From Bilabrum cf. latius (lineage: Eukaryota), in assembly GCA_965178125.1 (NCBI GenBank), contig OZ237746.1, forward strand, positions 62,001 through 126,000: DNA of 64,000 nucleotides, given 5' to 3'. Positions 4,601 through 64,000 of the stretch are shown in pieces. Under the pieces are notes generated by a model that had not been told where the DNA came from, searched no databases, and saw only the letters and a program-made list of their open reading frames with translations. The position numbers and the translations under genes are program-made. The number at the start of each line of letters is the position of its first letter. Position 1 is the first letter of the stretch.

Positions 4601-7564
4601 CAGAGTCGGGGCTGCGGTCGGAGACACCGACAGGAGGGCTGTCGCATTGATCTTGAGGATCCACACCGCTCCCTGACTCAAGTCCCTGTCATCATTCCCG
4701 GGCGATCCGACAGCTAGCTCAGGCAATCCGTCACGGTCCAGGTCGTGCAGCAAAGTTAAAGCCGCTCCGAATGAGTCAAATGGCTCAAGCACACCGGAGA
4801 AGCCGCCCTCAGTGGCGGATATTTTCCTGTGATCCTTCACCTTGCCATCCGTGCGCATGAACAGGATCCACACCGCGCCTCGAGAGAACTGGCCCCCGTC
4901 TCGGTCCCTCATAGCTCCCACAGCAATGTCATGCGCACTATCATCGTCGATGTCGCCTAGTGGTGCCACTGAGGACCCGAAGTAGTCAGGATAAATCAAA
5001 GACCCCTTGAACTCTCCCTCATACCTGGATATCTTCTGCCGGCGCAGCAGAGTCCCATTGGCAGCCAAGAAGTGGATCCACACCGCTCCAAAGTTGAGGC
5101 CGCCGTCGCGATCCGTAGGGTCACCCAACGCTAAGTCGCCCATACCATCCTGGTTCAGATCTCCAATGGATGCCATGGACCTCCCGAATGCGTCAGACAG
5201 GGCCGTCACTCCCTTGATCGACCCGTCAGGACGCAGCCGCATGATCCACACTGCTCCCTCCGAGTCCAGCGACTTGTAGTCGTTCAACCCCACGGCCAGC
5301 TCAGGAAGCTCGTCACCATCGATATCATCTACCACCGCAAGGGACGCACCCAAGTGAAGGGATTCCTTCCAGGCGTCTATCATCCCGATGGTGTGATTCG
5401 TGTGCCGCACGTGCTCGCGGACTGTCCCATCATCGTTGAGAAAGAGGATCCAAATAGAACCAAGCCGCTATCCATTTGAACTTGATCTCGTGTCCCCTAC
5501 GGACCCGACCGCCAAGTCAGGCGTGCCATCTCCATCCAAGTCCCCGAGACCAGCAAGTCCGACGCCGAACAGCTCAAAGGTTAGAAGCTCGCCGGTGAAT
5601 CCACCCTCCGTGCCGGAGATCTTCTGGTGCGACTTGACCGTTCCATTCGTGTAGAGAAACAAAATCCACACGGATCCAGCGGTGCTGTAAGGCCCGTTAC
5701 GGTCCCCTGGCGCAGCAACGGCCAGGTCACTTACGCCATCCCCGTCCACATCACCCACGTTCGCGACCTGTCCCCCGAAATCCACCTGCCTTGCCAAGAC
5801 TCCGGTGAAGCCACCAGATACCTCCGAAATCTTCGTCCAGGGGCTGCGCGGGACAAACGTGGGAGTGACGCTCGGTGTGGGGCTGGGCGAGGCCGAGGGC
5901 GTGCTGGATGGAAGCGGCGTGGTTGCCACACCGCCTCTATCGATTCGCAAGATCCACACCGCCCCCTCGTCCTAGGACTCGTCCCCGTCGCGACGCTTCG
6001 CACCGATCGCTATTTCCGGTGCACCGTCTCGATCTAAATCCCCAAGAGAAGACAAGGAACAGCCGAACAGGTCACCGTCTGATATCCCGCCGGTGAAGCC
6101 ACCCTCTGTGCCGGAGATCTTCTGGTGCGAGTTGACCGTTCCATTCGTGTAGAGAAACAAAATCCACACCGCCCCTCGACCCGAACCCCCCTATCCATCT
6201 GCAGGGGCCCCCACCGCCACATCCACTGTGCCGTCCCCATCCAAGTCACCGATCCCAGCCACCGCAGCCCCAAATCGATCCCCGTCCTGCAGCGCGCCAC
6301 CGAAGCTGCCGCCCGCGCTCGAAATCCCCTGCCGGCGCGCCGCCACTCCGTTGGCCCCAAGGAAGTACACCCACACAGCTCCCCTGTCAGTGCCGCCCAC
6401 ATCACTCCCTGGATCCCCTGCCGCCACCTCGAGAGGCCCTGTCCCGTCCAGCTGCCCCACCACCGCCAGCGAGTCCCCAAGTCCGTCTATGCTCTCGGAC
6501 ACGCCCTTGACCGTGCCGTTCGAGCGGAGAAAGATCGCCCACACGGCTCCGGTAGGGCTCGAGCCCGGCAGGCCCACGAGCAGGTCGGTCGCCCCGTCTC
6601 CGTCCAGGTCGCCTGGGGCAGTCAGGGATGCACCCATTCGATTCAAGTCACTCAGCACAGCCAGCCCGCCGAGGGTGGACCGGGACAGCTTTGAGTGAGA
6701 CTTGACCGTGCCGTTCGCTTGCAGGAACAGCACCCACACCGCCCCTTCTTCTGTACCTTCCTGCCTGTCCGCGTTGCCTGGCGCTCCCACGGCCAGGTCT
6801 GGCACACCATCTTCGTCCAGGTCCCCCAGCGCGGCAAGGGAGCTGCCGAACTGGTCCTGCGGGCTCAGGTCGCCAGCGAAGCCCCCGGCCGTGGCTGAGA
6901 TCTTCTGATGCATCCGTACTGTGCCATTCCCGTGCAAGAAGAGCACCCACACGGATCCCTACGAATTACCTCCGGCATCATCAAATGGTGCGCCGACCGC
7001 AATATCTCCTACCCCGTCTGAATCAATGTCTCCCACCGATACGATCGCGCTTCCGAACTCGTCAAATGCGTCTACGGACCCTGAAAACCCACCCTGTGAT
7101 CTGGACACTCTCTAATGCCCAAACGTGCGAAGGGGGGCAAGCCTGCGTGCTGCATGCCACCACATCCCGGAGTTACCGCTGTCAGCAGCCATGGCGATGT
7201 CTGCATGCTACCCGGGGGGACCAGGGGTGTGGATGTTTGTATGAACTGCAAAGGGCAGTTTCCAGCCGTCGCTTAATCGAGGAGAAGCTTGCGCTGCTTG
7301 TCGGAAAGTTGAGTGTGCTAGTGCAGGCGGAAGCATCACAGCAAGAAGCCACACACTGCGAGTGGGCAAGAAAAAACAGACTGAGAGGAACTAATTTAGA
7401 GTCTCTGACGTTGCATTTCGAATGAAAATTGCCACAAACATGATATCATTCAATGGAGAGCTGTTGCGGAATCTCGCGGGTTGAAGCCATTCCGGCCAGA
7501 CCAGCATTACTTGGCCTAAAAAACACCGCACCACAATCCATTTAAATAAGGTGAGATGATACAT
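1681..7564 (-). CDS. Large type I membrane protein (~1900 aa) with 18 FG-GAP/integrin-alpha-like repeats
   Basis: 18 GDxDxDG...LAVGAP...GAVWIL repeats in three blocks of six, separated by Ser/Thr/Pro-rich linkers. TM segment (TVAVVLMAAGAVAVVVFSTFVLY) near 2430-2365. One frame once TAG=Gln, with a phase-0 GT-AG intron at 3133-2974 and TGA stop at 1681-1683. The start is uncertain; a signal-like VWLLAVMLPPALAHS lies near 7350. Confidence 0.85.
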
Positions 7565-8067
7565 ACGCGGTGATGAATTCACGGGGCCTGACCATATCGG
7601 CGTAGTGCTAGCGCGTGCGTCAGACCTTTGGAACGTGAGCAAGCTGGCCCGGCTCGATCTCACCAAGCTTTCAAAGACAGGTGGTATATCCGAAGATTCA
7701 TGCCAATAATTGAGCTAGCCTGTGACAATTGCGAGTGAAGGTCTACCCCGACTAGTGCTGTCGGCGCCAGCCAGACCTGTCACCTATGCGTGGCACCGGC
7801 GCAGTGTGACGAAGTGATGCAACGCATTTTGACGCAGGTGCAACGCACGCGCGTTGTCAGTGTAAGCCTACTTGTGCATACGTGTCGAAGCACTGCATGG
7901 TGTGATTTGCTACGTAGACGTGCAGCCTTAGTAGTATAGATCTACAGCTGCCGCGAGACTTTTTCGTCTCTCAACAGTCGCAACGTGTGGTCGCAACGTT
8001 AATTTACTGAGAACAAAGTAGTTGATGTTTTCTCGTCAGCTCAAATCGTATTCACCAATGAAGTGTC

Positions 8068-10271: not shown

Positions 10272-11779
10272 ATGCACCGCTCTCTGCGTTATGGCGTTGC
10301 GCGTAGCCTTACACGATAGGTTTCTCGAGCGGTGAGATTGGATATTCATTGTCGTGCGCCTATGGGCGGCGGCAAAGACAACTCATCGGGTTGCCACGTC
10401 TTTCGTCTGCTGAGAATGATCGCCTATTATCACTAGCTTGTTGCTAAACCGCAGTTTTCCTCGGGAGCTTTGCAACCCAACGTAAGATTTCGCACAGCTC
10501 GGCATCGCATGCGGTTTTTTATCCTGCTGCGTAACATAGCTTGGCATCGCATCAACTGCAACTCATTCCGCTCATGTCGCAGGATGCCGTGATTGTGTCT
10601 GGAGCTCGCACTCCAATCGCTAGCATTTAGGGAGCACTGGCTGGGGTCAAGGCACCAAAGCTTGGTTCCACTGCGATCGAGGGTGCACTGAAGCGCGCCG
10701 CTGGCGGAGACGCCGACAAGCAGGCTGCCCTGGCGCAGGCCGTGGACGAGGTATTCATGGGCAACGTGATCTCCGCGGGGCTGGGGCAGGCACCTGCCAA
10801 GCAGGCAGCCCTGGGTGCCGGCCTGGGGACGAACGTTCCTTGCACGACCGTGAACAAGGTGTGCGCCAGCGGGCTGAAGGCCGCCATGTTCGCCGCTCAG
10901 CAGGCGGCCCTTGGCCACGGGGAGGTCTTCGTGGCGGGGGGCATGGAGTCCATGACCAACGCGCCGTACCTGCTGCCTGGCGCGCGGGCCGGCATGCGGT
11001 TCGGTCACGGCGTGGTGGAAGACGGGCTGCAGAAGGACGGGCTGTGGTGCGTGTACAACGACAAGGCCATGGGCTCCTTCGGCGACAAGTGCGCCACTGA
11101 GCACGGCTTCAGCAGGGAGGACCAGGATGCGTTCGCTCTGCGGTCGTACAACCTCTCCCAGGCTTCGGTGGAGGAGGGAAGGTTCGCCGACGAGATCGAG
11201 CCCGTGATGGTGCCCCAGCGGCGGGGTGACCCCCAGGCGGTGGACAGGGACGAGGAGATGTTCAGGGTGAAGAAAGACAAGATCCCCGCCCTGAGACCGG
11301 CCTTCGAGAAGAACGGGACGGTCACCGCCGCAAACGCCTCCACGCTCAACGACGGAGCCGCTGCACTGATCATCACGTCAGCGGCCAAGGCCGAGGCACT
11401 CGGGCTCACCCCACTGGCCCGCATCAGGGGATACGCCGATGCTGCCCAGGCCCCCGCCGACTTCACCACGGCCCCCGCGCTGGCGGTGCCCATCGCCCTG
11501 CGGCGGGCCGGCTTGGAGGTGAGCGACGTGGACTACCACGAGATCAACGAGGCCTTCGCGGTTGTCCCCCTTGCCAACGCCAAGATCCTGGGGCTGGACC
11601 AGGACAGGATCAACGTGAACGGCGGGGCGGTGAGCATGGGGCACCCCATCGGCGCCTCGGGGGCCCGCATCCTGGTGACTCTCCTCTCCGTGCTGCAGCA
11701 GAGGGACGCGTCCATCGGGTGCGCTTCCATCTGCAACGGGGGCGGGGGCGCGGGTGCCATGGTCATCGAGCGGCTGTGA
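10272..11779 (+). CDS. ACAT1: Mitochondrial acetyl-CoA acetyltransferase (thiolase)
   Basis: Exons 10272-10331, 10455-10481 and 10583-11779. Arg/Ser-rich transit-like N-terminus. Motifs VCASGLKA, NEAF, GHPIGASG and CNGGGG. TAG at 10317 and 10628 (RTPIASI*GAL vs usual RTPIGSFQG). TGA stop. Confidence 0.95.
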
Positions 11780-12050: not shown

Positions 12051-13071
12051 TCAGTCCGCCTCAGCGATGGCAGTCAGATGCCCCTCGATGGTCGCCTCGC
12101 TCAGCACCTCGGCCACCGCAGCGTGCAGAGTCGTGCCCCCGCTCGCACTGGCTGCACCGCCTGCCGCCGCGCCGCCCGCCCCGACCGCCGCGGAGCTGTC
12201 GCGCACGACCACTGCTTCCACCTCCGTGGGCTTGAAATCGGCGCCCAGGACCGTCTGCAGCGTGTCCAGCGCCAGCCTCACGGTGGCTTCCTCCGTGGTC
12301 GGGGGGGCGTCCCTCACCGCCTTCTCCAGGCGGTTCGTCGCTTCCTGCTCCTTGGGGCCGCTGGCGCACGCCTTGTATCCTAGGAAATATCCAGCGGGGT
12401 CGATCCGGAATAGCATGGGCCCCTTCTCGTCATCCACGCCCACGAGCGTCATGACGGTCGCCCGGATGCGGCGGCCGGCGTGCTGCGTGTACACCTAGGC
12501 CTTGTCCGCGATCTTCTTTGCCAAATAGTCCACTGGGATTTCGTACCCATTTTCATGCTTGAAATCTGCCGCAATCTTTCGAGCGTCCTACACCACCGCT
12601 CGGCTGTCCGCTTGGATCCCAGTCATAACAGCGTGAGTGCTCTTCGTGATTGCATACACATTGGTGACCGATGTGGGATCAATGAGCTTGTCCAATACTT
12701 TCTTCTGGGTAATGGCTACCACGCATCCGGCTTCCTTTGACTTCACAGCCACTGTTGTCAACGTGCTGGTCTTGTATCGCTTGAACGCGTACTCTGCGGT
12801 GCCCAGTTTCGTCGAGACAGGCACATATGACGGTGACATGGGGGCCAACACATATATGCACTCGCAGTTGAACGATTACGGTATCAGCAATATCAATGGC
12901 GCACGGAAGAAGGCTGGCGACAGGATTCCCAAGAATAGCGATACGGACGTGCACGAACTGGATTGGGCAAATCAGGCTGCACGCCGACTTGGTCGACTCA
13001 CCAAGCTGATAGAGCTTCCCTTCAGGCGAGAAAACACTCAAATAACGGTCATATCCGCTCTCCCTTGCCAT
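12051..13071 (-). CDS. PSMA6: 20S proteasome subunit alpha type-6 (alpha1)
   Basis: [28 protein letters not shown] with an intron at 13001-12794. Motifs GYEIPVDYLAKKIAD and DPAGYFLGYKA. Two TAGs (12588-12590, 12495-12497) fall at conserved Gln positions (V*DAR, A*VYTQ). TGA stop. Confidence 0.95.
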
Positions 13072-21801: not shown

Positions 21802-24077
21802 ACGTGCGTAACTTCTTCCTGTATAACACCTAGTATTCCTTTAAGCCGCTGCCTGTAGCTGATAGTAGCTGACACCAACGGCTCGAAGGCTGCCGGACTT
21901 ATATAGAACGGCTGCAAGTGACAGCGGAGCGGCTGCGCTTAAGTTGCAAGGGTCAGTTGCATCCACCAGCTCTCAACGACAGCTACAGTTTTGGACGACG
22001 TTGCTGTTGTAAATCTACGCAGAACCGGCCGTCGTCATCATACCGACTGCGGCCACCAGCCGGTGGATCGCAGTTCATTACCAGCACTAAAGCTAGCGGG
22101 TGCTGTTCACGGCGTGTGTTGGCCAGATGCGTGGTTAAAACGATCGATTTAGATGATATGTGTATTCTTTGGAGAGATCCAAAGCACTATTCAAGTTTGT
22201 GTTGCAGTTCACGCTTTAAGCCAATTCGCCCACAATCCGCGGGTCTCGCCTGTGTATATGCTTGACTAGTATAATATAATTATTTTTGGCTGATGTGCCA
22301 CGTTTGAGGCCGGGGGGGGGGGCGTGCTTTCGCACATACATTCAAATATCCTACTGGCACTTCCTAGTCAGCTTGCTCCACGCGATGATGTCCTAGATGG
22401 CAACAATACATTAGGGTATTTTTACTCGCGCAATTACTATGCTGGGTGTTTCTGGGCGATGCGGCACGCGATCATGGGCCTCGCATGTCCAGGGGCTGCG
22501 GGCTGTGGCCCGCCAGGGCCAAGGTTGGCTCAACTGGAAATTGCAGCTTAGTGAATGCCCCAATCATGTATCAGTGCATGTCGTACCGCCCGCAGGACCT
22601 GGTGACCTGGCCTGAAGCCAAGTTGTAGCGTGCACATCATGATTGCACCACAGCACCAGCCATATCGTTCCACAACAAGTTGGCCGCACACATCGAAGAG
22701 CTGCTAACCGTCGAGCACGCATCTTCACCAGCCATGCTCGCCCTGGTTACTACTGCTGTGTTAATTAGTATGGCTCTTGCAGCCCATGAAACCCCCTGTG
22801 AGAAGCCATGCTCGTTGAATCCGCCCCATGTACGTGCCCACTGGCACAGGAAGCGGTGAAAGGCGGTGACCCGGACTGCGAGGAACCCCCAAGGCCGCGA
22901 CCTAGACCTGCTGCATGCTCGCCGTGTGTCGAATCAAGCAGTCATAGGCAGCTACTATCTTTGATAGTGTGGCTGTCACTTCATTCGTGATGCAAGCTGC
23001 CAGTGCCAGGTCGCGTGTCGTGGTGCAGCGGGTGCGAACTGTCGATCGCGTGCTGCGTGCTGTAGGGCACTCCAAATCACCACTTTCCCACGCGCACGAT
23101 TGTCCTCGCTTTCAACGCTGCAGCAAAGATCCCCCGAGATTCTTTCATTGAACTGCCAGTGGCGGCTTCTGCCTTGCGCCGTCAGTCGCAAGGGTATGGC
23201 GAGATCAGGCTGGAGGAACTGAAATGGACAGCTGGCTCTGCAATCATCGGAGAGAATTACGAGGGGGCGTACATTTCGCATGCCTCTGCGAACAAAACCT
23301 AGTGCATCCTCTAGGATGGGACATTCCAGACGCACAGAGCTCGAGTCGCTGGCAAGGTCACGCTCCGGCCTGTCTCGAGCAGTCAGGCTTTGGCGAGCGG
23401 AGCCTACTCGAAAGTAATCATTTTTGTGTACCGAGATGATACTCACGTGTAGTTCCCGTACAGCCTGCGGATGTTGTCAACTTTTAGCGATTCGCAGGGC
23501 CGGGAGCAGGTGCTCTTGTCAGAGTCCAATTATTTGTACAGGACCGCAGACTAGGCCAGGTTCGAGTATCTAGACGCAGTCGATGCTTGGAGAAGGTACA
23601 CCACACATGATGCACTACTTATACGCAAGGTGGCCGAGACCTGCGATGAAGCCCCTGAAACGATCTCGAACGCGGGACTTGGCGAGCAGCCAGAGGAGCT
23701 ACCGGAACGTACAGCAGTCGCGTTGACCTCAGGTGTTTGCAGGGCTCAAAGTATACGTTACTATGCCGCCTTAGCCTTGGTTCCAGCGCTTTACGCTGTG
23801 CTCTTGTCTTGAGCCTGCCGGAATACGAGGAGGGCCATCCGGGCATTGATGTTGAGATCGCGGACAGGCTGCTCTACAAACGATCTAACTCTAGTGTGCA
23901 TGTAAAGAAAAATGCAGTGCTAGACAGATTTTATTGCTGTGTCAATAGGTGATCAGGATATTCAGATTGCGTGTGCAAAACGAAGCGCGTGCGCTGCACT
24001 GTGCGGGAAGCTGCTAGGCCTCGGGAAGTGCCGCAATCGTTTTTCACCACACCTGGACCGCAGACGCGGTGCTCCCA

Positions 24078-26768
24078 TCACAGGGGCACACCATCTGCCG
24101 CCCCACCCGAGGCAGCCTCCTTGCCCTCGCTGGGCATGCCCCCTCGAGAGCGCCTGCCCCTGCGCCCGCTGGACATGCCCGCGGCCTTGCACGCCTCCCG
24201 CAGGTCCTCCAGCGTGCGCGAGCGCATGCCGCGGAGCACCTCGGCGATCTCCTCGCTGCTACGCTTGTTCTTCAGCGCGAACCGCAGCACGCCCGTGATG
24301 GCGTCGAACTCCGCGGCTGTCCTGTACCCGCACCCCTTGATCACGTCCTCCTCCGTGTACTGCCCGCCCTCGATCTCGTCCCCGTAGAACTCGAGCTTGT
24401 CGTTGGCCAGCTGCCACCGCTTGTACACGTGCCGCAGGGTGCGCTCCTTGCGCACAGCGTCAGGGAACAGCTGCCCCGGCTGCCAGGCCCCCGCGTCGTC
24501 CTCAGAGTCCGAGTCTTCTGCCACGTCACGCCGCCGGCCCTTGGCGCCCTTGCGGCTACCTGAGGGGGTGCGCTTGGCGCTCCTCCCGCCGGCATCCGCG
24601 GAGACATCGTACTCCGGCGCGGTCGCTCCGCCCCTGACCTTGACCGCCACGTCATCGGCGGTGGCCAGGCTCTCCTCGTCCTCGTCGCTGTAGCCCCCTC
24701 CACGGCGGCCCTTGCCCCTGCCCTTACCCTTCCGGCGGGGGGAAGAAGCGGCAGCGGCGGCGCCGTCGTCTGAATCGTCCTCTGAGTCGTCGTCCTGGCG
24801 GCGGTGGCGCGTGTTCTTGCGGCGCCGGGCAGAGCCCCCGCCCCTACCCCTGCCACCATCCTCGTCATCCGAGTCGTCCTGGATGGCGAACCGAGCGGTC
24901 ATCTCCCGCTGCATCTTCTTGGAGCGGGAGTCCACTTCCTTCTGGATCTTCTTCTTGAGCATCTCCAGCTCTCGGATCTTCTCCGCCATTGGGTCCATGG
25001 ACAGGTCTGCGATGGGACAGAGGTGTGACCAGTGCGTGAGTGTGTGTGTGCAAGCGAAGTGACGAGCACATGGTGCAAGCGACATGGTACTTTGGCTCAC
25101 AGCTGGCCTCTCGTCGATAGAGCATGTGCTGCCTCCTGGCCCTGGACATGAGGACCGACCCGCCCGACACGGAGCCCTGGTCGTCGGGGATGCCCTGACC
25201 GAAGAACCCAGAGCTGGCCCTGTTGTAGTGCCTCAGCACCTCTCCCGCGTCCTTGTCGTTCTTGAGGGCCTGGGCGTCCTTGTCTCCCTCGAGCTTTGCT
25301 TGCTCTGCCTCGATCGCCTTGAAGTCCAGCTCCTCCAGCTCCAGCCTGAAGCCGAGCATGAAGAACCCGAAGACTGCCTTGCAGAGGATGTCCAGGATGG
25401 CGTGCAGGATGAAGTACCACTCCTCGTCGATCACCCCGGAGGTGTGGAAGGACAGCGTCCACAGCAGGGGGAAGAAGGGCCAGCCGGCGAAGAAGATGAG
25501 CCTGCCAGCGGACAGGTACCACCAGGCAGAGTCCGGGATCTTCTCCCTCTGCGCGTTGATCTCGTTCCAGAGAGCGTAACCCGCGCAGATGAACCCCGCA
25601 AGACCGATCCCGTACATGTAGTAGCGGTAGGGGGCATCCACGATGAAGGTCGCTACGGCGATGGCCAGCAGGCAGGCGATCGACGACGAGAACACGAGCT
25701 TGTAACGCAGGTTGACCGTGATGCAGAAGTCGAGGACCAGCAGCGGGCACGTAATCAGGTAGTCAGCGTACCAGACCTGGTTCAGGGAGAAGGCCGTGGA
25801 CTCGCCCGTGTCGTTGTACGATGCCCAGTCGACGGCCTTGAAGGCGTCTGCGAGAGAGAGGCAGGCTTTGCGAACTAATCAGAGATTCACCGCGGGCCTT
25901 TGCGCTTCAACTAATAGTCTACGAATTAGCACGCTAACTCTCAAACGACAGTTGACAACCCTAATTGTCTCACACATAACACCACAGAGGATTGAAATCC
26001 CAGGTGAAAGCCAGTTCTGCGATTAGCGACAGAGACAGCAATACATTGGCCCTTGAGTGTTCACATATGAGATAATCAGATGAAATGGATGCAGCAAGAT
26101 GGTTTGCGCTGAGCTAGTAGTCCGTATCCCGATGGAGCGCGTGCCAAAGCAATCAAGCGAGCGATCCGTTGCCGTTTCATAGGTGTGAAGACACAGCCCA
26201 AACAGTATCCCACTCACTTCTTCGGGTGGTCCCTCTGGTCCATGAGGTCTTGTGTTCCAGCCAAGACCGGCTGCGGTTTTCCATGCCATGTAGGCTGCGA
26301 TGCGTGGGTATGGTTCGGATCGAATGGTCACGGTGACAACGCCGAATTCAGGCATATTCTTTGAGCTATGCAGAGACATGGACGCCTCAAACACCAACAT
26401 AGACCCCCGTCTTATTGAAATTCATCATCAGGTAAAGGCTCAGCCCTACACGAAGAAAAAGCTCGCCTCTTGCATCAAACAGCAACATACTTCACTACGG
26501 AGGCATCTGATGCAATCAGGGCAGCTGAAGAGAGCCAACACGCAACATAGGCATACTCTCGGTCATTTTAATCACACGCTCTGCATGATTTCGGCCAAAA
26601 CTTGCCGCAAAAGTAGGAGGGAGCGGGTGTCGCGCTCGGGCTTTCCGGCGAAAAGCTCTCACCTCCAGCAGCCACCAAGATGATCGCTGTTATGGTATTG
26701 ACGGCAATGAGTGCACCGAATGTCCCCGGTTCTTTCTAGCAGACGCAGAGCTCGCAGCAATCAGACAT
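24078..26768 (-). CDS. Potassium-channelrhodopsin (KCR)-clade, bacteriorhodopsin-like channelrhodopsin, 633 aa with long cytoplasmic tail
   Basis: Five phase-consistent GT-AG exons: 26768-26663, 26294-26218, 26016-25974, 25847-25101, 25006-24078. TAG=Gln at codon 11. TM3 FSLNQVWYADYLITCPLLVLDF carries the D-T-D motif with Trp at the BR R82 position. TM7 ILHAILDILCKAVFG carries the retinal Lys and is followed by FRLELEE, as in HcKCR1. Confidence 0.93.
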
Positions 26769-27138
26769 GCTTAACCCGCCAGACAATATATCTGCTCGCG
26801 GTCGATCGCAGGGCGAGCACACACACGGTTGGTCGCAAGTCTGCGGTTGCAACCGGTATCGAATCGTGCCGATCGGCGATTGAAGCAAGTGCAACATTAC
26901 ATAGGCAAATCTGATCACAGGATAACCGAGGCCTAAACACCTGAGGCCATTGCATTCCACGCAAGCATCACACGCCGTGCCGTCCACGAAGTGGCAGCGC
27001 TTGGCTCTGACGCAAGAGATCTGACTATCAATGCACGGGCAGTGCGATGACTTCTCCCGGAAGTTCTCCGACGCCAGCTCGATTGTGCGGAGGACAGGAC
27101 AGGACGGCCAGGGTTAAAACCACGATGAGACCCAGCTG

Positions 27139-30100
27139 TCATGTCCCGTGCTCCACCCACAAAACAGCTGCGCCAAGCCCCCGAAGCGCCTCCAAGACTC
27201 GCCCTCGGCTGGCCCCATCAAGTGCACTCCACGCCTCGTCCGCCAGCAGCAGCCGGGGCGGGGGGCTCCTCAGCAGCAGCCTCGCCACCGCCACCCGCTG
27301 CAGCTCGCCCGCCGACAGCTGAGAGTGCCAGTCCCCACTGCGGCCCAGCTGACGAGCCAGCGATTCCAGCCCCACCGCCTCCAGCACGCGCTCCATCTCG
27401 GCGACATCCACGGGCTAGAGCGACGCACTCGTCACACCAATTGGAACACCAGGCCCCGCTCCCCCCTCCTCCACGCTAGATGTCCACTGCCAGCACGCCT
27501 CGCAGCACGACTCGCACTCGTCACACGAGCAACCCATGCACCCAGCCGCACCCTCCCCAGTTGCCTCATCAGGCTCCTCCCAACTGACAGCGCCACAACC
27601 AGCACCAGCACCAGCACCAGCACCAACCCCCGCTAGCAGACTCGAGGGTGCCCTCCTGCCGGTGCCCATGGCTAGCGCCAGAGCCAGCGGGACACCCTCG
27701 GGGATGTAGGGGAGGGGGCCCAGCCAGGCCACCGGGCCCGGGCTGCACTGCACTGCGGTGGAGAGCGCACCCTCGCGGGCTGGCACCCGGATGCTTCCAC
27801 TGGCAGCTCGCCGCAGCCCTGCAATGCAGTGCAACAGCGTGGTTTTCCCCGCCCCGTTCCTGCCGCTGACCCTCCACCATTCCCCTCGACAGGCCTGCAG
27901 GGACACGGGGCCCGGCGGCAGCGGTCGAGCAAGCCGCTGGTGGTTACGCTGCAGTCTTGCCACGCCTGGTATTGCTTGTACCGCAGGGACATTGCTCTGC
28001 ATGGCATGTCCTGCAACCACCGCCTGCATCTCGAGCTCGATGGGACCAGTTCCGGCGTCAATTGCGGCCTGCCCTCCGATTGCATCTCCACAGTGCACTG
28101 CATCTGGAGCTGCCAGAGACACCTGCACATCTGCCCCCAGCTGCTCATCCTATCCTCCCCCCTACCGCCGCCCCCCCTCCCCACCGCACTCGTCACACCC
28201 CTCGCACCGCCTCACCAGCTGCAGCACCCTCGCCCCCACCCCCATGAGCTCGGCGGCAGAGGCCAGGTAGTCCGGGAGGGCGCACATGTACAGGTTCAAA
28301 GAGATGAGCAAAGAGGACAGCGCGTACAGCGAGGCAAGCGACATCCTCCCCGTCCCCTCCTCGTCGCGCCCCTGTTCCCCTCCCGCCGCCCCCTGCGCCG
28401 CAGCAGCCGCAGCCACTGCCGTGAACGCATACGCGATCCCCGTGCCACCCCTCGCTGCCACCAGCGCCGCCAGCCTGGCGGGCGTCTCGAGCAGCACCAG
28501 GGAGTGCGCCGCCGCCAGCAACGAGGCCATCCTCGCGTCAGCGGTATCTCTCTCCCACTGTTCCCCGCCCAGACCAGCCACCGCGTCCGCCCTGTCCCTG
28601 GCCCTCGCGTGCCCCCGCCGCAGCACGCCCTCCCGCCTGCGCACCTCCCACACCGCCTGGGGAACAGGCTGCAAGAGGCACCGCGCCAGGGCCAGGGCGG
28701 CCAGCGCGAATAGCACACATAGCAGCACGGCCAGCCCACTGAGCCGACTGGCCGCCACCGCCGCGGACAGCAGCCCCGTGCACACCTGCACCAGCGACAC
28801 CCGCCCCCTGGCCCCCCACAGCGCCACCCCAAGGAGGTGCCCAGCCCTGTCCGTGTCCTGGGCCGCGCGCTGGTCCAGCCCGTCGCTCTCGCCCCCGGCA
28901 CCTGCCCCTGTGCCTGTACCTTCACTTGTTACACCTGAGTGCAGTGCACCCGGCGCCCTTGTTCCCTGGCCCTCCGCCCCCTCTGTCGCACCTGCGCCAC
29001 TTCCGTCCTGGCCCTGGGTGCCGCGCGCCAGGACTGGAAGCAAATGGGACCCAGGCGCCGCGATCGTGCGATGCACCCGGGCGGTCACCCTGCGGAACCA
29101 CCTCGCGCTCACCGCGGCTCCCAGCGATTGCGACCCGGCGTTCAGCGCCGCTGCCAGCGCATACGTCCCTGTCCCCACCCAGAAGGCCGCCCAGAAATCG
29201 TGGAACCTCAGCTCCACGATTGCCTGCAGCGCATCCCCCACCACGAAGGCCTTGGTCACGGACACGAGAGCGAGGAGAACCTCCAGCACGAAGGTGAGGG
29301 CCAGGAGGAGCCAGTCCAGGGACACCCGCCCGATGGGCAAGCCAAGTGTGATGAGTGCACCGCAGTCCCAGACGCCAGCCGCGGCTGCCTCGAAGCAGCC
29401 CCTGCACACACAGCCGCCTGCATGACCCGCCCGCTTGCTCCCATCGTGTGACGATTGCCCGGATGCGGGCCTGCGCTGAGTCTCGCCAGACGACCCCAGC
29501 AGGGGCAAACGGTCCGAGACTGGGGGTGCCACGTGTGCATTGGGAGCAGCGCTAGCGGCTGCCAGCCCCCCAGTGCCAGCGGATAGAGAAGGGACCCTCG
29601 CTGGCGAGCACGTCTCGATGGCTGGTGCACACTAGCCCAAGCCCTTCCTCGTAGCCCCATCCTAGTGCTCTCCATGGCTAGACGCGCTGCCAGTGCTACT
29701 CGCAGCAGTTGCATCAGTCCCCATCGCGCCCAGCTGCAACGCCTTCACCTGCCCCTGCTCCCATCCGGCCTCGACCAGCGCCTGCCTCGTCCTATCTTCC
29801 TGATGGGTCACCAGCACCACGGTACAGCCCACCTCTCTCAAAGCACGCGCACATGCCCTCAGCCCCTCGTCGTCCTGTGCCCCCAGCGCCTCGTCCGCCA
29901 GCAGCAGCCGGGGCGGGGGCCTCCTCAGCAGCAGCCTCGCCACCGCCACCCGCTGCAGCTCGCCCGCCGACAGCTGAGAGTGCCAGTCCACTGGAGCTCG
30001 TCTGTAGTCCTTGTTCCCCAGCAGCCTCTCTTGGATGCTTAGTGATAGATCCAGGGCTTGCAATGCCCGGGTCACCGCATCACGTTGTGCACCCGCATAT

Positions 30101-32533
30101 CCAGCCGTGTCTGGTCCATTGAGCTGACCCGATCTACCACCACCATAGCTTGCAGGCAGCCTATCAGCCGAGGCCCCAGCAGTCACGCCAACCCCTGTCC
30201 CTTGGGTATCGCCGCACCTGTCTCCATCTCCCTCCTCCGGTGCAATCACCATCGCACGGGCCATGGAGAGATAGTTCCCTGCGATCCCATCCCCTCTCAG
30301 CGACCTGCACGCAGACCAGCAGCACCCCGCTAGCCCGCCCCCAGAGGAGCCCCCACCTCCTCTCTCACCTCCTCTGCGCTCTTCGTGTACCAAGGGGTCA
30401 CGCAGGCGTCCACCCCCCTGCCCTTCGGCAGGCCCTGTGCCCCCACACCCCTACCCAGGGGCACACGGCATGGGCATCCTGCAGCAGCAGCACGGATACG
30501 GCTCCACCGCGGGGAGGAGAGCCTCGGCCGTGGCTGCAGCGGTCGATGGGAGGCCGGGCAAGGAGCCGGCCATTGCTTGCCACTGCCCCTGCGGCTCTGC
30601 CCTCGCACGGACGATTGCCGGGTCCACGGGTGCAGGGTACTGCAACGCCTGCTCTCCCGTGGAGGGGGGCACGTAGGGAGTCCCCTGCAGCAGCAACACG
30701 CTCCTGCCGAGCGATCTTCGCCTGGCGTCCTCACTCGTCACACCTGATACTCCCCGAGATCTCCCCTCGAAGACGGTACCCCCGATGGTACCCTCACAAG
30801 CCCCGGCCTTGTTCCCCGCGATTGCTCGCAGCAGGCTGGTCTTGCCACACCCCGAGGGACCAGTCACCAGCAACACCTCACCCTACCCCAGCTCAACGGA
30901 CACATTCTGACACAGAAGCTTCCCGCCTGCCTTGACGCTGACACCGGTCATACTCAGGGCAGCGGCAGCCTTCCTGCCTCCCAGCGGGCCCCCCGCCCCC
31001 AATTGATCCCCTGCATCCTCGGCCCCCCTCTCCTCCCCCAGGAGCCCCGCACGCTCACCTTCACCTTGACCTTCACCGACACCTGAGTCCAACCCCCCCC
31101 CTAGATCACTCCCATGGCCCGCACTCGTCACATCCAACACGGCCCTCACCCTCACGGCCGCGCCCAGCGTCGGACCCAGCCCCAGCAAGAGCCCAGGCAG
31201 GGCGCACAGTGCCCCGATCAGGTAGGCGGCGCCGGCGGCGGCAGAGGCCACGTCAGCGGCACTGGCTGTACACGGAGCATCGTCTGCACCGCCATGCAGT
31301 GCCTGTGACCGCACCAGTCCCCTCAAGGCTCCGGCACAAGCAAGCCCCCCCTACTCGCCCCCCATCGACCCCACCCCCATCCCCCCGCTCCCCTCCCCCG
31401 AGCATGAGACGAACATGCCCCCGTGCTGCACCCCCAGCGCGATGCACGCATAGCACAGCACCCACGGATAGGACGCCTGCAACCCGCTCCACGTGCCGCT
31501 CGCCACCATCCAAGAGGCCAGCTCCATGCGGCGGGCAGCCACCCGGCCCGCGAGCCCCTCGAGCCGTGAGCCCAGGGAGGGCCCCAGCCCAGCCAGCACC
31601 ACCTCCTCCGCCTGACGAGTGGCCCTGTCCCACGCAAACCGGAACTGTCCCATGGCCCGGTCGGCGGCCGCGGAGAGGGAGGCCACGGGGGAGAGCAGCA
31701 GCCAGGCCACCGAGGCGCTGGCCGTTGCGAATGCAAGGGCGATGCCCACCGTGCGCGCCCCACCCACCCCTTGTGCCACGTACTGCAGGCTTATCCCCGC
31801 TGAGACGAGCGTGGACACGATCCCACCCTGGGACGTGTTGGAGGAAAAGAGGCGCTGGGCGAGCAACCGGCAGAAATCGTCCAGGTCCGATGTGGCGCGC
31901 TGGTCGAAGTCAGGGGCTGTTGCGGGTACTTTAGAGTCCATGCTATCGATCGTCGTTTTTGATTGTGCTCTGGCAAAGCCTGCCTGGTCATATATGCCGC
32001 GGTGGAGCTTTATCGCCAATGCACCCCGCATGCGCCAGCGAAGGCGCTCCCCCTGCAGTTGGCAAAGAGATGATTGGCTTACAACAAACTAACTAAAACG
32101 AAACAAGCGAGTAGATTGAGCGCTGTGTATGCATATTAGTGTCCATTGTCCTCACTGTCGTCGCCGCACCTTGCAGCAACACTGCAACGCAGCAATACAG
32201 CAACAGAGCGGCAATCACGTCGCCCCTGGCCCCTTCCCAGTCCTCATCATACAGTTTTCCGACAATGGCCGCCGATACAATGGTCGTGTGGAAAGATGCT
32301 AACGATCTGCAATGTAAGGGTACGGCACAACATGTCTTGGAGTGCCTCAAGGCCACATGCCAACAGAGAAGCTGTCCTCGCGGGACTCACGATAAGACCT
32401 AGCTGGCCAAGTTCACAAAAAGGTCGACATAAGATGCTCCTGGTTCGAGACAAAACGACGCAACCAGCAAATTCCAAGCCGCTGGCAGTGCGAAGCGTGG
32501 AGAAACGGTAGCTGTCCTCTTCTCATACTCCAT
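27139..32533 (-). CDS. Full-size (TMD-NBD-TMD-NBD) ABCD-type peroxisomal-like transporter, divergent
   Basis: Two NBDs with Walker A GPSGCGKTS and GRNGAGKTT, signature LSAGELQR, Walker B LLLADEA and H-loops. DQRATSD/DQRAAQD motifs in the TMDs. Two 5' introns; the remainder is one frame via TAG read-through, ending at TGA 27139. Confidence 0.8.
27232..29989. repeat. Pair of 103-bp near-identical direct repeats (27232-27334 and 29887-29989) in the two NBDs
   Basis: Direct comparison shows one mismatch. The repeat encodes DWHSQLSAGELQRVAVARLLLRxPPPRLLLADEA. Confidence 0.9.
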
Positions 32534-32857
32534 GTCGGCCAGCCCAACTTCCTGTTTTTTAACCTTAAGAGTCTATGCGACAAAATGCTGCAGTACTATT
32601 TATCTTGCACCTGTACAGTCCATATGTAGGTCCTCTGCACTATTACAGTGCAATGCATCCAAGTGGTTCCGCTCGGCATGATGCGCGGTGCCAGTCAGGC
32701 TTCTACTGCAGTTCGGCAACATCAGACCCTTCCACGCTACCTTGCGAGCACCGCCCGCTGGCTCAAAACGAACAGCGGAACGTGATAGCAACGAATATCG
32801 GAGTATATTGTCCAGCTCCTGCGTTTTGTTGGTTGCTGAAGCCGGGTTGATTGTGCA

Positions 32858-35800
32858 ATGCACGCCGGCTTGCGTCATGACCTCGACAGCCTGGTTCGAA
32901 AGGCGACAGTGGGGTACGGGGCCTGGTTGCTTGCGATAGCAACAGCAATAACCGCAATATACACATTTGCTATTGACCTCAGCGCATAGTCTGTCGGGTC
33001 TGAGGCTGCTTGGCGATCTGACAGAGCACACCAGCTCGATTTCAAGGTACCATCGTCAGCTCTTTCTGAAAGTGGACGGGAGCCGACTGGAAGCACCAAT
33101 GCGGCCAATGAGGCAATCAGTACTGCCTAGGTAGGCCTAGGAACTCTAGCAAGCTTCGTCTTTGCGATGAGTGTGCTTGGATTTGCTGCTGTGAGTTGTA
33201 TGCTAGGTCTCGAGTGGAGCAGGCACAGTTCTTTCTATGATTGCAGCTCACAGGCAAGGTGGGGCAGGCATTCGCTGATGACACTGCTATTATGGCTTGT
33301 TATGGTTGCTATCACAAGCGAAACGTATTTCTTTTACGTGCCGCTGCACCCTGGAGGCGGCATCTTCGGCAAAGGCCCTATAATGTTAGCCATGGGCGGA
33401 ATGCACAACTACCTTGGTATCGCCGGACGAATGATCAGGTCGCTACTGTTGGGAAACTAGTGGACGGTAAACGATATAACCGCATTTGAGCAGGCCCGCG
33501 TCGCGGCTCTGGGCCAGCCCTGGGCTAGCTCTGTGGTTGTGGTACTCACTGTCGTGGCCTCGATTATCATCGGGTCCACCACGGCGCCGCGCCCACAAGT
33601 GGAATTCAGGCTTAAGGCTGCTCGGGCAACTTGGATCGTGTCGGGGGCTCTCTGCGGCGGTCTCACGTTCACTCTTGCCGCGGGCTGCATGGGCCTGTCG
33701 CTGATCGGGGTCACGCAGAGCGTGCTCACACACGGGATGGAAGGGCTGCAGGACCTGGGGAACACGCTGGGGGTGGCAGGAGAGAACGCAAGCGTGTCTC
33801 AATTTGGTCCCGATGTGAATATCACCGGTCTGCTGCAGGCCAGCGTCGCTGGAGAGGACGGCGTGCCTTTGATCTTCCCTGCCCTGGTGCAGCTTGCGAC
33901 CAACGAGGGGCAAGCAGGTAAGCTGGAGGCCCTGGGCATGCGGGCAGGGCAAGAAGGGGTTCTGCGGGCTGCCCAGGCCTGGAGCCAGTTGGATGCAAGC
34001 GTGTCAGAGAGCGAGGCAATCGAGCTGCTGGCCCCGCAGGTGAACGACGTGACCACCTCCCAGCTGAACAGCGGGTGCCTCGTGTGGACGGCAAGGGCAG
34101 AAGCGCTCGCAGCTCACGCGGCTGTGTCTGCCCTGCGAAACCAAGCAGCAAGAGGGCCGCTACCGCTGCAGCTCTCCAACGGATTCTTCTCCATTGACCC
34201 CTCGAGAGACACAGCCAACGCCGCTGTCCCTATGCTGCCCGAGCAGCGAGCAGCGCCCGCCGCCTTTGTGCTGTTCCTGCTGATTTGCACCGTGACTACA
34301 ACCGTGTTTGCCATTTCGCTGGTTTTGACCCCCAGCAGGGGGCTGGACGAGGCCACCAGGGCAGCGGCGCAGGAGCTGAGGTCAATGGCAGGCAGGGATG
34401 GACAAGGGAATGAAGGTGGAGAGAATGATGGTGACGTGTGCTGTTCTTACCGGTGTATGCACGAGGCAACGATCGATGCTGAAGTAGCATGCGCGAGGTG
34501 GATTACCCCTGCTTGCGGGTGCTTTTAGCGCTTGTGCTGCTGGTGCGAGTGCTGCCGCTGCTGCTGCTCCATGGGTCTGCCTCGATGCTGCCACCCGGCA
34601 CTCAAGCCCGTCTTTGTGCCAGCTCGCCGCATCAAAAACAGGCGTAGAAACAAAGCCATCGCTAGCAGGGGCGATGAGTAGCATGCAGGCAGCAACCGTG
34701 ACAGGCAGGAGGAAACGGTCCGTGTGAACACCAGGCGGTGGGGCAGGGTAGGCACAACGGAGCTGAGGGTGGCGGCTTGCATGCACGAGACACTTGTCAC
34801 AGTCAGGCACTCCCTGGACCTGTGTGGGACAGACCAGGATGAAGGGCAGACGGTGGGCCACAGTGCAGCAGACAGGGCAGCTGCCGCTCGCCGCCCCTCG
34901 TCGCTCCTGGTCCGCAGCAGCCTGGCGAGGGCGCGCATGCTCGGGGCCTCTCTCAAGTTCATATCCGTGCTGCTGCTGATGGAGCTCTTTCTTGGACCAT
35001 TCACCCTAAGCCTGCTGCGGCATAGGTCCATGCGCATGTGCTAGTGTGCGACAGCGAGGGTGGAGGGGCTTGGGCCTAGCCTGGGACAGTGCGAAGACAG
35101 CGTGGCGGGTCGACCGTTGGCCGAACTTTTGGGGCCTGTCGCAATCGAGTACGTGTAGGACAGCACGGCTGTAAAGATTGTCATTCGGCTAATCCAGACA
35201 GTGCTGCGAGTGCTGCTGGTTGCTAGCATCTACGTGTATGCCAGATAGTCCAAGGAGATGGAGCAGGCCGTGGAGGTCTCGGAGAGGCAGAAAGCCGCGC
35301 TGCAGTCGAGGGTGCGGTTCCTGTCGCACGAGTGCAGGGTGCCTCTGAACTCGGTGGTGCTGGGTCTAGATTTCTGCCAGGAGGGAGCCAGCGCGACCAA
35401 GGGAGCGCTTGGGAGGCTGCACGTAGCAAGGGTGCAGTCGGACCGACTCCGACAAGCGCTTATTTAGGACTTGGATAGCGCAAGTGATGGCGTTCAGGTG
35501 AAACAGGGCTCCAGAGATCTCCGCAGGAGGCATTAGATTGCCGCCAAACAGCTGGCCTTGGACTTGGGAGAGACAACGGAGGCACTCGAGGAGGCTGTGG
35601 GTCTCTTCGATGACACGCTGCCCTCGCTCGAGGCAGCCACAGAGGCAATGCAGACCACCCTCAACGACGTGCTCGCCCTGCAGCACATCGAGTCTGGCCG
35701 CTTGCAGATCACCATGCGCCTGGCTCCCATCTTGCCTAGTATTCTAAATGAGACGAAGAAAACCTTCTTGGCCCAGGCAGAGGGAATGGGTGTCTCACTA

Positions 35801-38629
35801 GAAACGTGCAACAGGCACCCGGCCTCTGGCAAGAGCTTCGAATGCGACCCTCCGCGCATCCGAGGTGCCGTGTACAACTTCGTATCTAATGCGCTCAAGT
35901 GGTCCAGGCCTGACGAGGTGCTGGTCAAGCGGCTCCGGGATAGGGGATAGGACGTTGCTGAGGGTAGGGGCAGGGGAACACGAGACGACAGGCCCAGAGT
36001 AGTTGTGGGCTCAGCCGAGCGTCCTCCTCACCTATGGGGGGCAAGTCAGTGGCGGGAGGCCTGGTCCAAGATGGGGCCAGAGGCGTGCAGTCGGCTGCAC
36101 CGCATTGTGACGGGCCAGTATGGAGGGAAGAGAAGGAGGCCCCACCACGCCGACAGCAGGGCGAATATGGTCGAGGATATGGCGTCGAGAGACGCCTCTG
36201 GGTCAAGCCTGGCCGAGGATCGGGCGGCACCGCACACCCCAGGTCCCATCAGCGCTGGTCCCATCAGCGCTGGTGCCCTCAGCTTGTCCCAGCACGGGTC
36301 CCTACCGTCCATCGGCACAATGTTCCCCGAGAAGGGCGAGGGCGATGGAACTGCTGCATCCACGCCGGGCTGTAGTCCTCGGGTACGAAGCTCAAGGCGC
36401 AGTGTCAAGGGGCGAGGCAGCACTGGAGGCAGTGGCAGTGGCAGCGGCAGCGGAAACGAGAGCAGAAGCAGCAGCAACAGCCGCAGCAACAGCAGCGCAA
36501 TCGATGAGCACGAGTGGGCAAGCGGAAACACACCTGACTCGTAGAGCGGCACGGGTGACTCGTGGGCGGTCAGCGATGGGGAGGACCCAGACATGCTGGC
36601 AGCGGCAGAGGCAGCTGCTGCGGTGAGGAGGGGGGCGTGTGGGCCACTGTCCCAGATGCTGGAGGAAGAGGAGGACGAGGAATCGCTCGGGCGAAGACAG
36701 CCCACCGCCATCGGCATGTGGAGGCACAGCCGCGATGCAGCCAAAAGCACGCAGCGCGAAGAATGTGACCAGCTGCCCACCGAGGCCCAGATTGCCCCCG
36801 ATACTGTGGAGGTGTACGACGAGCTGCTGCGAGGAGTGGAAGAGGTATCAGCTGGAGATGATGCAGGAGTGCTTGTGCATGGGAAGGAGGGATCGGCGAC
36901 CAGCGGGATCGCGTGGGAGGAGAGCGCGTGGGCCGCCGGGGGAAATCGCGGTGGGGAAGGCGGGGTCGAGGGAAAGAGCGGTCTGTCCTCTGGCAGGTCT
37001 TCCAGCGGAGACAATGATGCTTCTAGCGCCACGAGTGTCAGAACCAGCTCTGATCAGGTCATGCCGGTGTGCATGTGGGTGTACGACGAGGGCCCTGGGA
37101 TCCAGAGGAGGGACTGGAGGCAGGTCTTCACCCCCTTCGAGACGCTGCACTCGGGCATCCTCACGGCGGAGGGGCAGGGGTCAGGACTGGGGCTGGCCAT
37201 CACCGCGACGGTGATGAAGATGCACGGGGGGTGTGTGGGCTTCAGCTCCATGCCTGGTGTGGGTAGTGTATTCTTCCTTTGGACCAAGATGCGCGTTGCA
37301 GGCGGCAGCACTGGCGTCAGCAGCCGCAGTCACAGTCAGAGCCACAGCCTGCCTGTGTCAGTCTGCGATGTCAACGACATCTTGGGGGGCACTGAAGCGG
37401 CCACCATCCAGCTGCCACCCCGGGCCATAGCCCCTGGACTGAGTCTCAGCCGACGGTCGAGCGGGAGCGACGCTGCGGGCGGCGGGCTTGGTCTGTGCCC
37501 GGGCCCAGTCAAGGAGGTTGAGGATGAAGACGAAGATGAAGATGAAGATGAGGAGGATGGAGATGGGGTAGCTGGTGTGGAGCAGGAGACGGTTCTGCCA
37601 TTCGAATCAGGCAGCGACAACCAAGAGGTCAGCACCAAAGCCGGCAGCAAAGTGCGAACGACCGGTCCGGTGCAGTCTGCAGGGTGGCGGCAGCAGGCAA
37701 ACACCGCCGGTACTCGGGGGGACAACAACTGGGCAAGGGCCGGTGTATCTACGGCCAGCGCGATGACACCTCTGCACCGTGGCAAGGGGAGTGGCAGCAG
37801 TGCGAATTGGGTGTCGGGAGGTGTCATTGCGCGGGAACAGGAAGAAGATGAGGAGGACCAAGGGGGTGCCGAGGTGGACACGAGCCAGCTGCAGGAGTCA
37901 CACCTTGCACAAGCAGACCCAAGGGCACCATCGTAGCGGTCGGAAGGCCAGCATAGTCTGGATGTCTCAAATTCAGGACCAGCACCGGCAGGGGAAGGGG
38001 CACCGGCACCGGCTGGGGCAGGGATGTTACCTGCAAGCGAGGGTGGTGGCAAGCGCAAGCAGCGCCGCGTAGTCAAGAAGAAGAGAACGAAGCGTAAAGA
38101 GGCAGAGAAGAAGCCTGAAGCAGCCGCCGGCAAGCCCTTGGGCTCAGGGTCGCAAGCAGCCGACCGCGCTAGGACAAGCGAGCCCGCTGACTCGCAGCCA
38201 CAGGGCAAGGTGGTGCTCGTGGTGGACGACAGCCGCACCAACAGGCTCTTCCTATCACGCATGGTGCGATCTGCGGATCGATCCGTTCAGGTGCTGCAGG
38301 CCAGTGATGGGCAGGAGGGGCTGGATGTGCTCAAGCAGAGAGCCCAGCAGATGGGAGATCAGGACCATGGGCTAGCCGCCGACCTGGTGCTGCTGGACTT
38401 CTCCATGCCTCGCATGTCCGGGCCCGAGATGGCGCGGGCCGTGCGCGAGGACAGCGACAGCCGTATCCGCGGGGTGCCGATCGTGGGTGTGACGGGCAAC
38501 GCGCTGCCCGAGGACCAGGCGTTGTTCCGGGAATGCGGGGCGCAGGACGTGCTGCTGAAACCGGTGCGGCGGGTGCAGGTTGGAAAGGCACTAGGCAGGA
38601 TGGATGAGTTGCGGGCCGCACTGGCCTGA
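32858..38629 (+). CDS. Multi-TM hybrid sensor histidine kinase (HisKA, HATPase, receiver), ~1920 aa
   Basis: H-box FLSHECRVPLNSV, N-box NFVSNALKW, G1 DEGPGI, F-box VFTPF, G2 GSGLGLAI. Receiver VLVVDD...LLDFSMPRMSG...VTGN...LLKP. Eight ORF-track pieces lie in one frame separated only by TAG, ending at TGA. Start at ATG 32858 is inferred. Confidence 0.88.
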
Positions 38630-63572: not shown

Positions 63573-64000
63573 GCTCCTTTGCCACCCGCTTCGCTCGCTC
63601 CAATGCTGACTTGTCTATCGCGGCTGTCACATCCTCCCACGCCATAGCGCTATGGTTGCCTGCCGGATTCAGTCCCAGTAATTCCCACGTGGGCCCCACC
63701 TGAGTCTGCGTCATCCGCAGCGGGGTCTCGTTCTCGCTCCGCAACTACCACAGTCGAAGCACCGCAGGAGTATCCATTCTCCCCACTGGTGCCACCCTAT
63801 GTATCAAAATCATGCGCAGAGCAGTTGCTAACACGAAATGCTGACCCGTATTGGCTGTGTCCCCGTTGCCTCCACCTGCCGTGCGGACTGCTGCCGCATG
63901 AAGGACCATCCCTAAGCCCAAGAACATTCTTCGCACTGCAATCTCCAACGCCTCGTGAAGCTTGCTCATTACTGCCCTGGCTTCCGCATGCTTATCCTGG
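63361..64000 (-). CDS. ORF1 (putative Gag-like) of the retrotransposon, partial
   Basis: Open frame via TAG read-through from the window edge to TGA at 63361, overlapping the start of ORF2. Identity rests on position only. Confidence 0.55.

Follow-up and report, generated by a model that had tools for sequence, protein, structure and literature searches.

We analysed a stretch of DNA of 64,000 nucleotides from Bilabrum cf. latius (GenBank assembly GCA_965178125.1, contig OZ237746.1, positions 62,001 to 126,000; hereafter the window). On its minus strand lies a gene which a preliminary description had proposed to encode a light-gated K+-selective channelrhodopsin (KCR). The gene reaches from the ATG at 26768–26766 to the TGA at 24080–24078, exactly the two ends of the span 24078–26768 assigned to it beforehand. 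Its five exons, assembled from the raw sequence and the stop-to-stop frames, comprise 633 codons, and their spliced translation is a microbial rhodopsin of 633 residues which contains all four peptide stretches quoted earlier. As had been stated, the gene is not visible as a whole in the open reading frame track: five exons could be placed, and an in-frame TAG is codon 11. The channel itself is already known. The gene is a close natural variant of B1ChR2, which has been patch-clamped and solved by cryo-electron microscopy (cryo-EM).

Gene structure and transcripts

All coordinates are positions in the window, and all parts of the channel gene are on the minus strand. Exon 1 (26663–26768) starts with the ATG at 26768 and holds codons 1–35 plus one base, which encode the N-terminus and most of the first transmembrane helix (TM1). 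The TAG of codon 11 is at 26736–26738. Intron 1 (26295–26662, 368 nucleotides) is followed by exon 2 (26218–26294), encoding the end of TM1 and the TM1–TM2 loop, and intron 2 (26017–26217, 201 nucleotides) by exon 3 (25974–26016), encoding TM2 with L64, S65, and I68. Behind intron 3 (25848–25973, 126 nucleotides), exon 4 (25101–25847) covers the end of TM2 to TM7 and the proximal C-terminus. It carries D82, W83, N98, W101, D104, T108, C109, D115, F209, Y220, F221, H224, D228, and K232. According to the alignment and the codon map, positions 25378–25380 encode the retinal Schiff-base lysine K232, equivalent to K233 of HcKCR1. Intron 4 (25007–25100, 94 nucleotides) precedes exon 5 (24078–25006), which encodes a predicted coiled-coil, a charged low-complexity stretch, and a conserved helical end domain and closes with the TGA at 24080–24078. 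All four introns (25007–26662) have the same ends, GTGAG...CGCAG.

The intron-less form of the gene was found in Logan contigs of the public runs X5, X6, and X7, which come from two studies and were all three guessed to be RNA. These contigs bridge all four predicted introns exactly, at the joints 26294/26663, 26016/26218, 25847/25974, and 25006/25101, and no other letter differs over 23915–26780. The skipped stretches have the ends CT..AC, that is, GT..AG on the minus strand. Every intron word is missing from the three runs, which fits RNA. The longest spliced contig, from X5, covers 23915–26780; those of X6 and X7 cover 23920–26771 and 23953–26775. In run X1, from which the window may derive, the whole stretch lies unspliced within a 20-kb contig, and the organism labels of X5, X6, and X7 differ from that of X1. 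We conclude that the locus is a real, expressed five-exon gene.

The contigs stop at 26771, 26775, and 26780, and as contig ends are a weak hint of RNA ends, these stops hint weakly at a transcript start shortly before the ATG at 26768. We considered and rejected both a further first exon on the upstream side and a small intron which would remove the TAG, as the contigs are unbroken from 26663 to 26771 or 26780 and the published B1ChR2 protein has the same start Met. On the upstream side, a contig of the neighbouring stretch from run X5 begins at 26923. With the channel contigs stopping at 26771–26780, the gap between the two transcribed stretches (26781–26922) may be only about 140 bp, contig ends being weak evidence here as well.

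Relationship to B1ChR2

Exon 4 alone matched the Pfam family Bac_rhodopsin (PF01036) with an E value of 5e-21. With this seven-helix domain and the Schiff-base lysine K232 in TM7, the protein is a type 1 rhodopsin. Against the PDB, the best match of exon 4 was 8jxo/8jxp, named "BlCHR2" (E 1.5e-167). HcKCR2, HcKCR1, and HcCCR came next (2e-34 to 3e-29), then GtCCR2, GtCCR4, and ChRmine (9e-17 to 2e-12), and then bacteriorhodopsins. Chain 8jxo_A was matched by exon 4 over residues 77–324 and by exon 5 over residues 326–390, and exon 1 is identical to residues 1–35 of 8jxo at 34 of 35 positions when TAG is read as Gln. The spliced model reproduces the frame of the published B1ChR2 protein (P0001, UniRef "BlCHR2, Bilabrum", UPI0024CC9479) through all four exon junctions without a break. 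The domain match and the agreement across the junctions bear out the complete seven-helix rhodopsin that had been reported.

If the TAG is counted as Gln, the protein shares 380 of 391 residues (97%) with P0001. The 11 substitutions, given with the window residue first, are D3E, V81I, A103S, A141S, D216N, D266E, A276T, G381A, T390A, H392R, and R393G, and the window protein has two extra residues at 376–377. Five of the 11 fall in the first 250 residues, which form the channel domain, and none of these five is at a signature or supporting position of KCRs (see below), where the window protein always equals B1ChR2. Of the suggestion that the gene may be identical or close to B1ChR2, only the second half holds. 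A comparison with the known KCRs had also been proposed; among PDB sequences, B1ChR2 was the closest, followed by HcKCR2 and HcKCR1. Because the gene is so close to a characterised channel, most of its novelty is gone, and, as had been foreseen for a database match, the functional call is left standing.

In a word-based search with exon 4, which is weak evidence, B1ChR2 was the only one among 699 candidate proteins of similar length to pass E 1e-10, and none of 2042 longer candidates passed. A tblastn search with P0001 gave no second rhodopsin gene, that is, no other match below E 0.1 in the 64-kb window.

B1ChR2 was found as a contaminant in algal transcriptomes and assigned to Bilabrum sp. 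(Vierock et al. 2022, PMC9733931). B1ChR2 (8jxo/8jxp) and the window protein have the same signature, counterion, and retinal positions, including K232, and the same N-terminus. They differ in that the window frame is 242 residues longer. Codon 11 of the window gene is TAG. The locus is best explained as a nuclear gene of the stramenopile KCR group, a variant of B1ChR2 at strain or species level, and its host as a Bilabrum-like bicosoecid flagellate.

Selectivity and retinal positions

Residue positions were taken from printed alignments to the HcKCR1 chain 8gi8 and from the codon map. Residues 22–249 of B1ChR2 align with HcKCR1/HcKCR2 at E values of 6e-41 to 1e-45. The signature quintet of KCRs is D87, N99, W102, D116, and Y222 in HcKCR1 numbering (PMC9733931). 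The equivalent residues in the window protein are D82, N98, W101, D115, and F221, of which four are identical. The fifth, F221 for Y222, is a conservative change which B1ChR2 and WiChR, both K+-selective, have as well. The supporting residues S70, F88, D105, and W210 correspond to S65, W83, D104, and F209; S65 and D104 are identical, while W83 and F209 replace one aromatic residue with another. L69 and I73, which are selectivity determinants according to a review on KCRs, are L64 and I68 in the window protein. D105/T109/C110 correspond to D104/T108/C109, so that the DTD motif is D104/T108/D115, and F221, H225, D229, and K233 correspond to Y220, H224, D228, and K232.

All positions named in the preliminary description are therefore as claimed. 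It had listed L69, I73, W102, and D116 as kept, together with D105/T109/C110, D229, and K233, and had given the aromatic residues at 88, 210, 221, and 222 as W, F, Y, and F.

HcKCR1 and HcKCR2 of Hyphochytrium catenoides (8gi8, 8h86, 8h87) belong to the same family, and the equivalents of their DTD motif, W102, N99, D87, D116, D229, and K233 are all found in the window gene. Compared with HcKCR1, the window protein has F for Y222, Y for F221, F for W210, and W for F88, and its TM2–TM3 loop is four residues longer. The HcKCR1 chain of 265 residues also lacks the long C-terminal tail of the window protein. WiChR (WlChR1) of Wobblia lunata was compared by its descriptions in PMC9733931 and the review. 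It has Phe at the Y222 position, as in the window gene. The K+ selectivity of WiChR is above that of HcKCR1, and its currents are large and non-inactivating, unlike those of B1ChR2 (PMC9733931, review). HcCCR, a Na+-preferring paralogue (8ifu, 8gi9), has the same fold and belongs to the same family (E 3e-29). As the name of the mutant HcCCR_F69L_S73I_T222Y in the review tells, it has F69, S73, and T222 where the window protein has L64, I68, and F221.

High K+ selectivity of B1ChR2 was reported by Vierock et al., who also named K232 as its retinal lysine (PMC9733931), and the review counts it among six known K+-selective channelrhodopsins. A cryo-EM structure of the B1ChR2 trimer at 2.7 Å is available, and its description mentions an "additional long C-terminal region" (10.1101/2023.07.22.550149). 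Strong inward rectification of B1ChR2 has been reported by others. Because the window protein is nearly identical to B1ChR2 and every named selectivity and retinal position is as claimed, the proposed function as a light-gated K+-selective channel is supported. Taken as a whole, we consider it very likely that the gene encodes a light-gated K+-selective channelrhodopsin, a variant of B1ChR2, in which the UAG at codon 11 is read as Gln.

C-terminal tail

The published B1ChR2 sequence ends at residue 391, about 68 codons into exon 5. The genomic frame passes this end by 242 residues and reaches residue 633. The tail begins with a predicted coiled-coil, continues with a charged low-complexity stretch, and closes with a conserved domain of about 116 residues (24153–24500, minus strand), to which no named family or fold could be assigned. 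Among 1.84 billion representative proteins, this domain has exactly one relative, P0003, a protein of 279 residues from metagenome contigs (72% identity, E 5.5e-53).

P0003 is the last exon of another rhodopsin gene, at locus L002. In its two longest aligned exon pieces, this gene has 85% and 83% identity with the window gene. The signature residues are the same in both genes, introns 3 and 4 are common to them, and the gene at L002 contains two extra introns. Hence, the tail is conserved between two channel genes. Metagenome contigs with this second B1ChR2-type gene were found at L002:1–1791 and L001:1–1025; its first exons lie off the contig.

The AlphaFold2 model of the end domain is all-helical, with a mean predicted local distance difference test score (pLDDT) of 63.5. 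Pfam assigned no family to exon 5. Foldseek against the PDB gave no match for the domain at E 0.001 or better (best 0.66), and in the ESM Atlas the best score was 0.82, which is within the range of shuffled proteins. We infer a role of the tail in anchoring the channel within the cell or in regulating it.

Reading of UAG as glutamine

Codon 11 is TAG in the window and Gln in the published B1ChR2, and the TAG is retained in the spliced contigs. Since no further in-frame Met occurs before M38, where TM1 ends, the TAG must be read for a seven-helix protein to be made.

The same is seen elsewhere in the window. Frames delimited by TGA only reach 2293 codons and contain in-frame TAGs. They encode thiolase, a double ABC transporter, a hybrid histidine kinase, leucine-rich repeat (LRR), Armadillo, and FG-GAP domains as well as Tudor-knot, reverse transcriptase, proteasome, SLBP, and RsmB-like methyltransferase domains. 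In the channelrhodopsin, thiolase, proteasome alpha-6, and FG-GAP genes, frame and homology continue on both sides of the in-frame TAGs, as expected for a changed code, and the Pfam matches to RVT_1 and Tudor-knot span TAGs.

The proteasome alpha-6 gene (12054–12875, minus strand) indicates which amino acid is inserted. Its two TAGs, at 12590 and 12497, were coded as X in the query, and both align with Gln in all five printed homologues. Together with Q11 of B1ChR2, they support the reading of TAG as Q in the preliminary description. In the thiolase gene (10574–11779, plus strand), the TAG at 10628 is in a conserved N-terminal motif, where the three printed homologues have M, Q, and L. One TAG is within the run CAG TAG CAG CAG CAG. 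Eight TAGs lie within 18 in-frame FG-GAP repeats, at variable columns. When the membrane part of the histidine kinase is aligned with its homologue at L001, one of three window TAGs is opposite Q; the homologue itself contains two in-frame TAGs, where the alignment is poor.

Six long frames with 9,890 codons contain 290 CAG, 54 CAA, 47 TAG, no TAA, and no TGA, where the zero for TGA is by construction and the ranges were chosen to begin after the upstream TAAs. All 15 coding-like frames which passed a filter for G+C at third codon positions (GC3) end in TGA and none in TAA, some of these frames overlapping each other. TAAs are found only in upstream, probably untranslated parts of the long frames. 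After a frame of at least 150 codons, the next in-frame stretch was also at least 150 codons long behind 25% of 60 TAGs, 15% of 86 TGAs, and 0% of 11 TAAs. Reading TGA as sense also lengthens frames in the window DNA, which has 63% G+C, and crude frame statistics alone are not decisive. A tRNA scan of the 64-kb window gave no genes, and Rfam at the gathering threshold gave no matches in it.

We conclude that UGA is the working stop, and UAG is almost certainly a Gln codon in this host. Under this code, codon 11 of the channel gene is a regular Gln codon. The situation resembles NCBI tables 15 and 6 and Iotanema spirale, where TAG is a sense codon aligned with Gln and TGA terminates (PMC5304391); here, the host is a stramenopile. 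As neither an in-frame TAA nor a TAA terminator was seen, the data fit reassignment of TAG only (table 15) as well as of TAG plus TAA (table 6). Our literature searches gave no report of a changed nuclear code for Bilabrum, bicosoecids, Opalozoa, or stramenopiles, and none was found in passages of PMC11412368 and PMC5304391, although the supplements of PMC9733931 may state one. Having written Q at codon 11, the authors of B1ChR2 either had CAG at this position or knew the code. As a tentative proposal, slightly less likely than not, a Bilabrum-like bicosoecid and its metagenome relative would read UAG as glutamine in nuclear genes and stop at UGA, a code unreported in stramenopiles as far as our searches show, and natural B1ChR2-type channels would carry a conserved C-terminal domain.

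Alternative explanations

Several observations weigh against the interpretation as a functional K+ channel gene read with UAG as Gln. The runs with spliced contigs are RNA by guess, none of the listed runs being recorded as RNA, and one of the three is flagged "probably DNA." At most of the other TAG sites examined, the aligned residue is variable. B1ChR2 itself is poorly expressed in mammalian cells, inwardly rectifying, and fast inactivating (PMC9733931, review), and the K+ selectivity of the window variant would be carried over from this protein at 97% identity. In the channel domain, three of the five substitutions lie close to functional residues: V81 is beside D82/W83, A103 is beside D104, and D216 is just before TM7, five residues upstream of Y220/F221. 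The gene could encode a channelrhodopsin which is not K+-selective or not a working channel, for instance a general cation channel of the HcCCR type or a protein that mainly pumps. Selectivity can indeed respond to small changes near the filter, being lowered in both HcKCR1 Y222F and WiChR F240Y (review), and KCRs pump H+ without K+ according to the abstract of a 2026 preprint. However, all five substitutions spare the signature and supporting positions, and L64, I68, and F221 of the window protein sit where HcCCR needs F69L, S73I, and T222Y to become K+-selective (review). We regard the loss of K+ selectivity or channel function as very improbable.

Even less probable is a dead allele or pseudogene, in which a true nonsense mutation would have turned CAG into TAG in a B1ChR2 copy, so that no channel would be made. 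Read with the standard code, the frame has only 10 codons before its stop, and translation from the next in-frame ATG would start at M38. The published Q at codon 11 is one transition away from TAG. Yet no stop interrupts the other 622 codons, and three runs contain spliced contigs. Every long conserved frame of the window also has in-frame TAGs but no TGA or TAA, at the numbers given above and with the same limits on TGA and TAA, and the TAGs of proteasome alpha-6 align with Q. We therefore retain the K+-selective channelrhodopsin with Gln at codon 11 as the preferred explanation.

As judged from B1ChR2 and HcKCR1, K232 would carry the retinal, D104 and D228 would be the counterions, and light would open a pore inside each protomer of a trimer. 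A filter on the outer side, formed by N98, W101, F221, and D82 with the aromatic residues W83, F209, and Y220, would pick K+ over Na+, and D115 would be on the inner side. The five exons are joined to an mRNA whose UAG at codon 11 is translated as glutamine and whose UGA is the stop. In the natural protein of 633 residues, the channel is followed by the coiled-coil, the charged linker, and the small conserved helical domain.

Neighbouring genes

Directly upstream of the channel gene lies a double ABC transporter (27142–32151, minus strand) with a frame of 1670 codons and nine in-frame TAGs; two ABC_membrane_2 stretches and three ABC_tran stretches are in this one frame. A large membrane protein ending in HATPase and receiver domains is encoded at 32840–38626 (plus strand), at a distance of about 6 kb from the channel gene. 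At L001:1829–3442, about 800 bp downstream of the related channel gene, lies a homologue of the N-terminal membrane part of this protein. The proximity of kinase and channel in the window and at L001 could reflect a conserved neighbourhood or chance.

At 2885–8035 (minus strand), a giant FG-GAP repeat protein has 18 repeats in one frame, and 21 TAGs are in its TGA-delimited frame. A reverse-transcriptase frame at 60972–63626 (minus strand) has 885 codons with 18 in-frame TAGs and no TGA or TAA, and the Pfam RVT_1 match contains four of the 18 TAGs. It seems that the retroelement uses the code of its host.

Significance

As a K+ channelrhodopsin, the gene adds little, since B1ChR2 is already characterised and WiChR and HcKCR1 are stronger optogenetic tools. 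The remaining interest is in the full-length gene with its conserved tail, the five channel-domain substitutions, and the UAG = Gln code of the host. The five natural substitutions, three of them beside functional residues, offer a cheap test of how rectification and selectivity are tuned. With regard to the code, standard-code gene callers would truncate or miss most genes of this host, and the channel gene was invisible as a whole; if the reassignment is unreported, the host is a further independent case of UAG reassignment. The full-length gene provides a conserved tail which is lacking in the published constructs of 391 residues. The poor targeting of B1ChR2 in mammalian cells may find its explanation in this tail, or the tail may reveal how a light-gated K+ channel is positioned in a heterotrophic flagellate.

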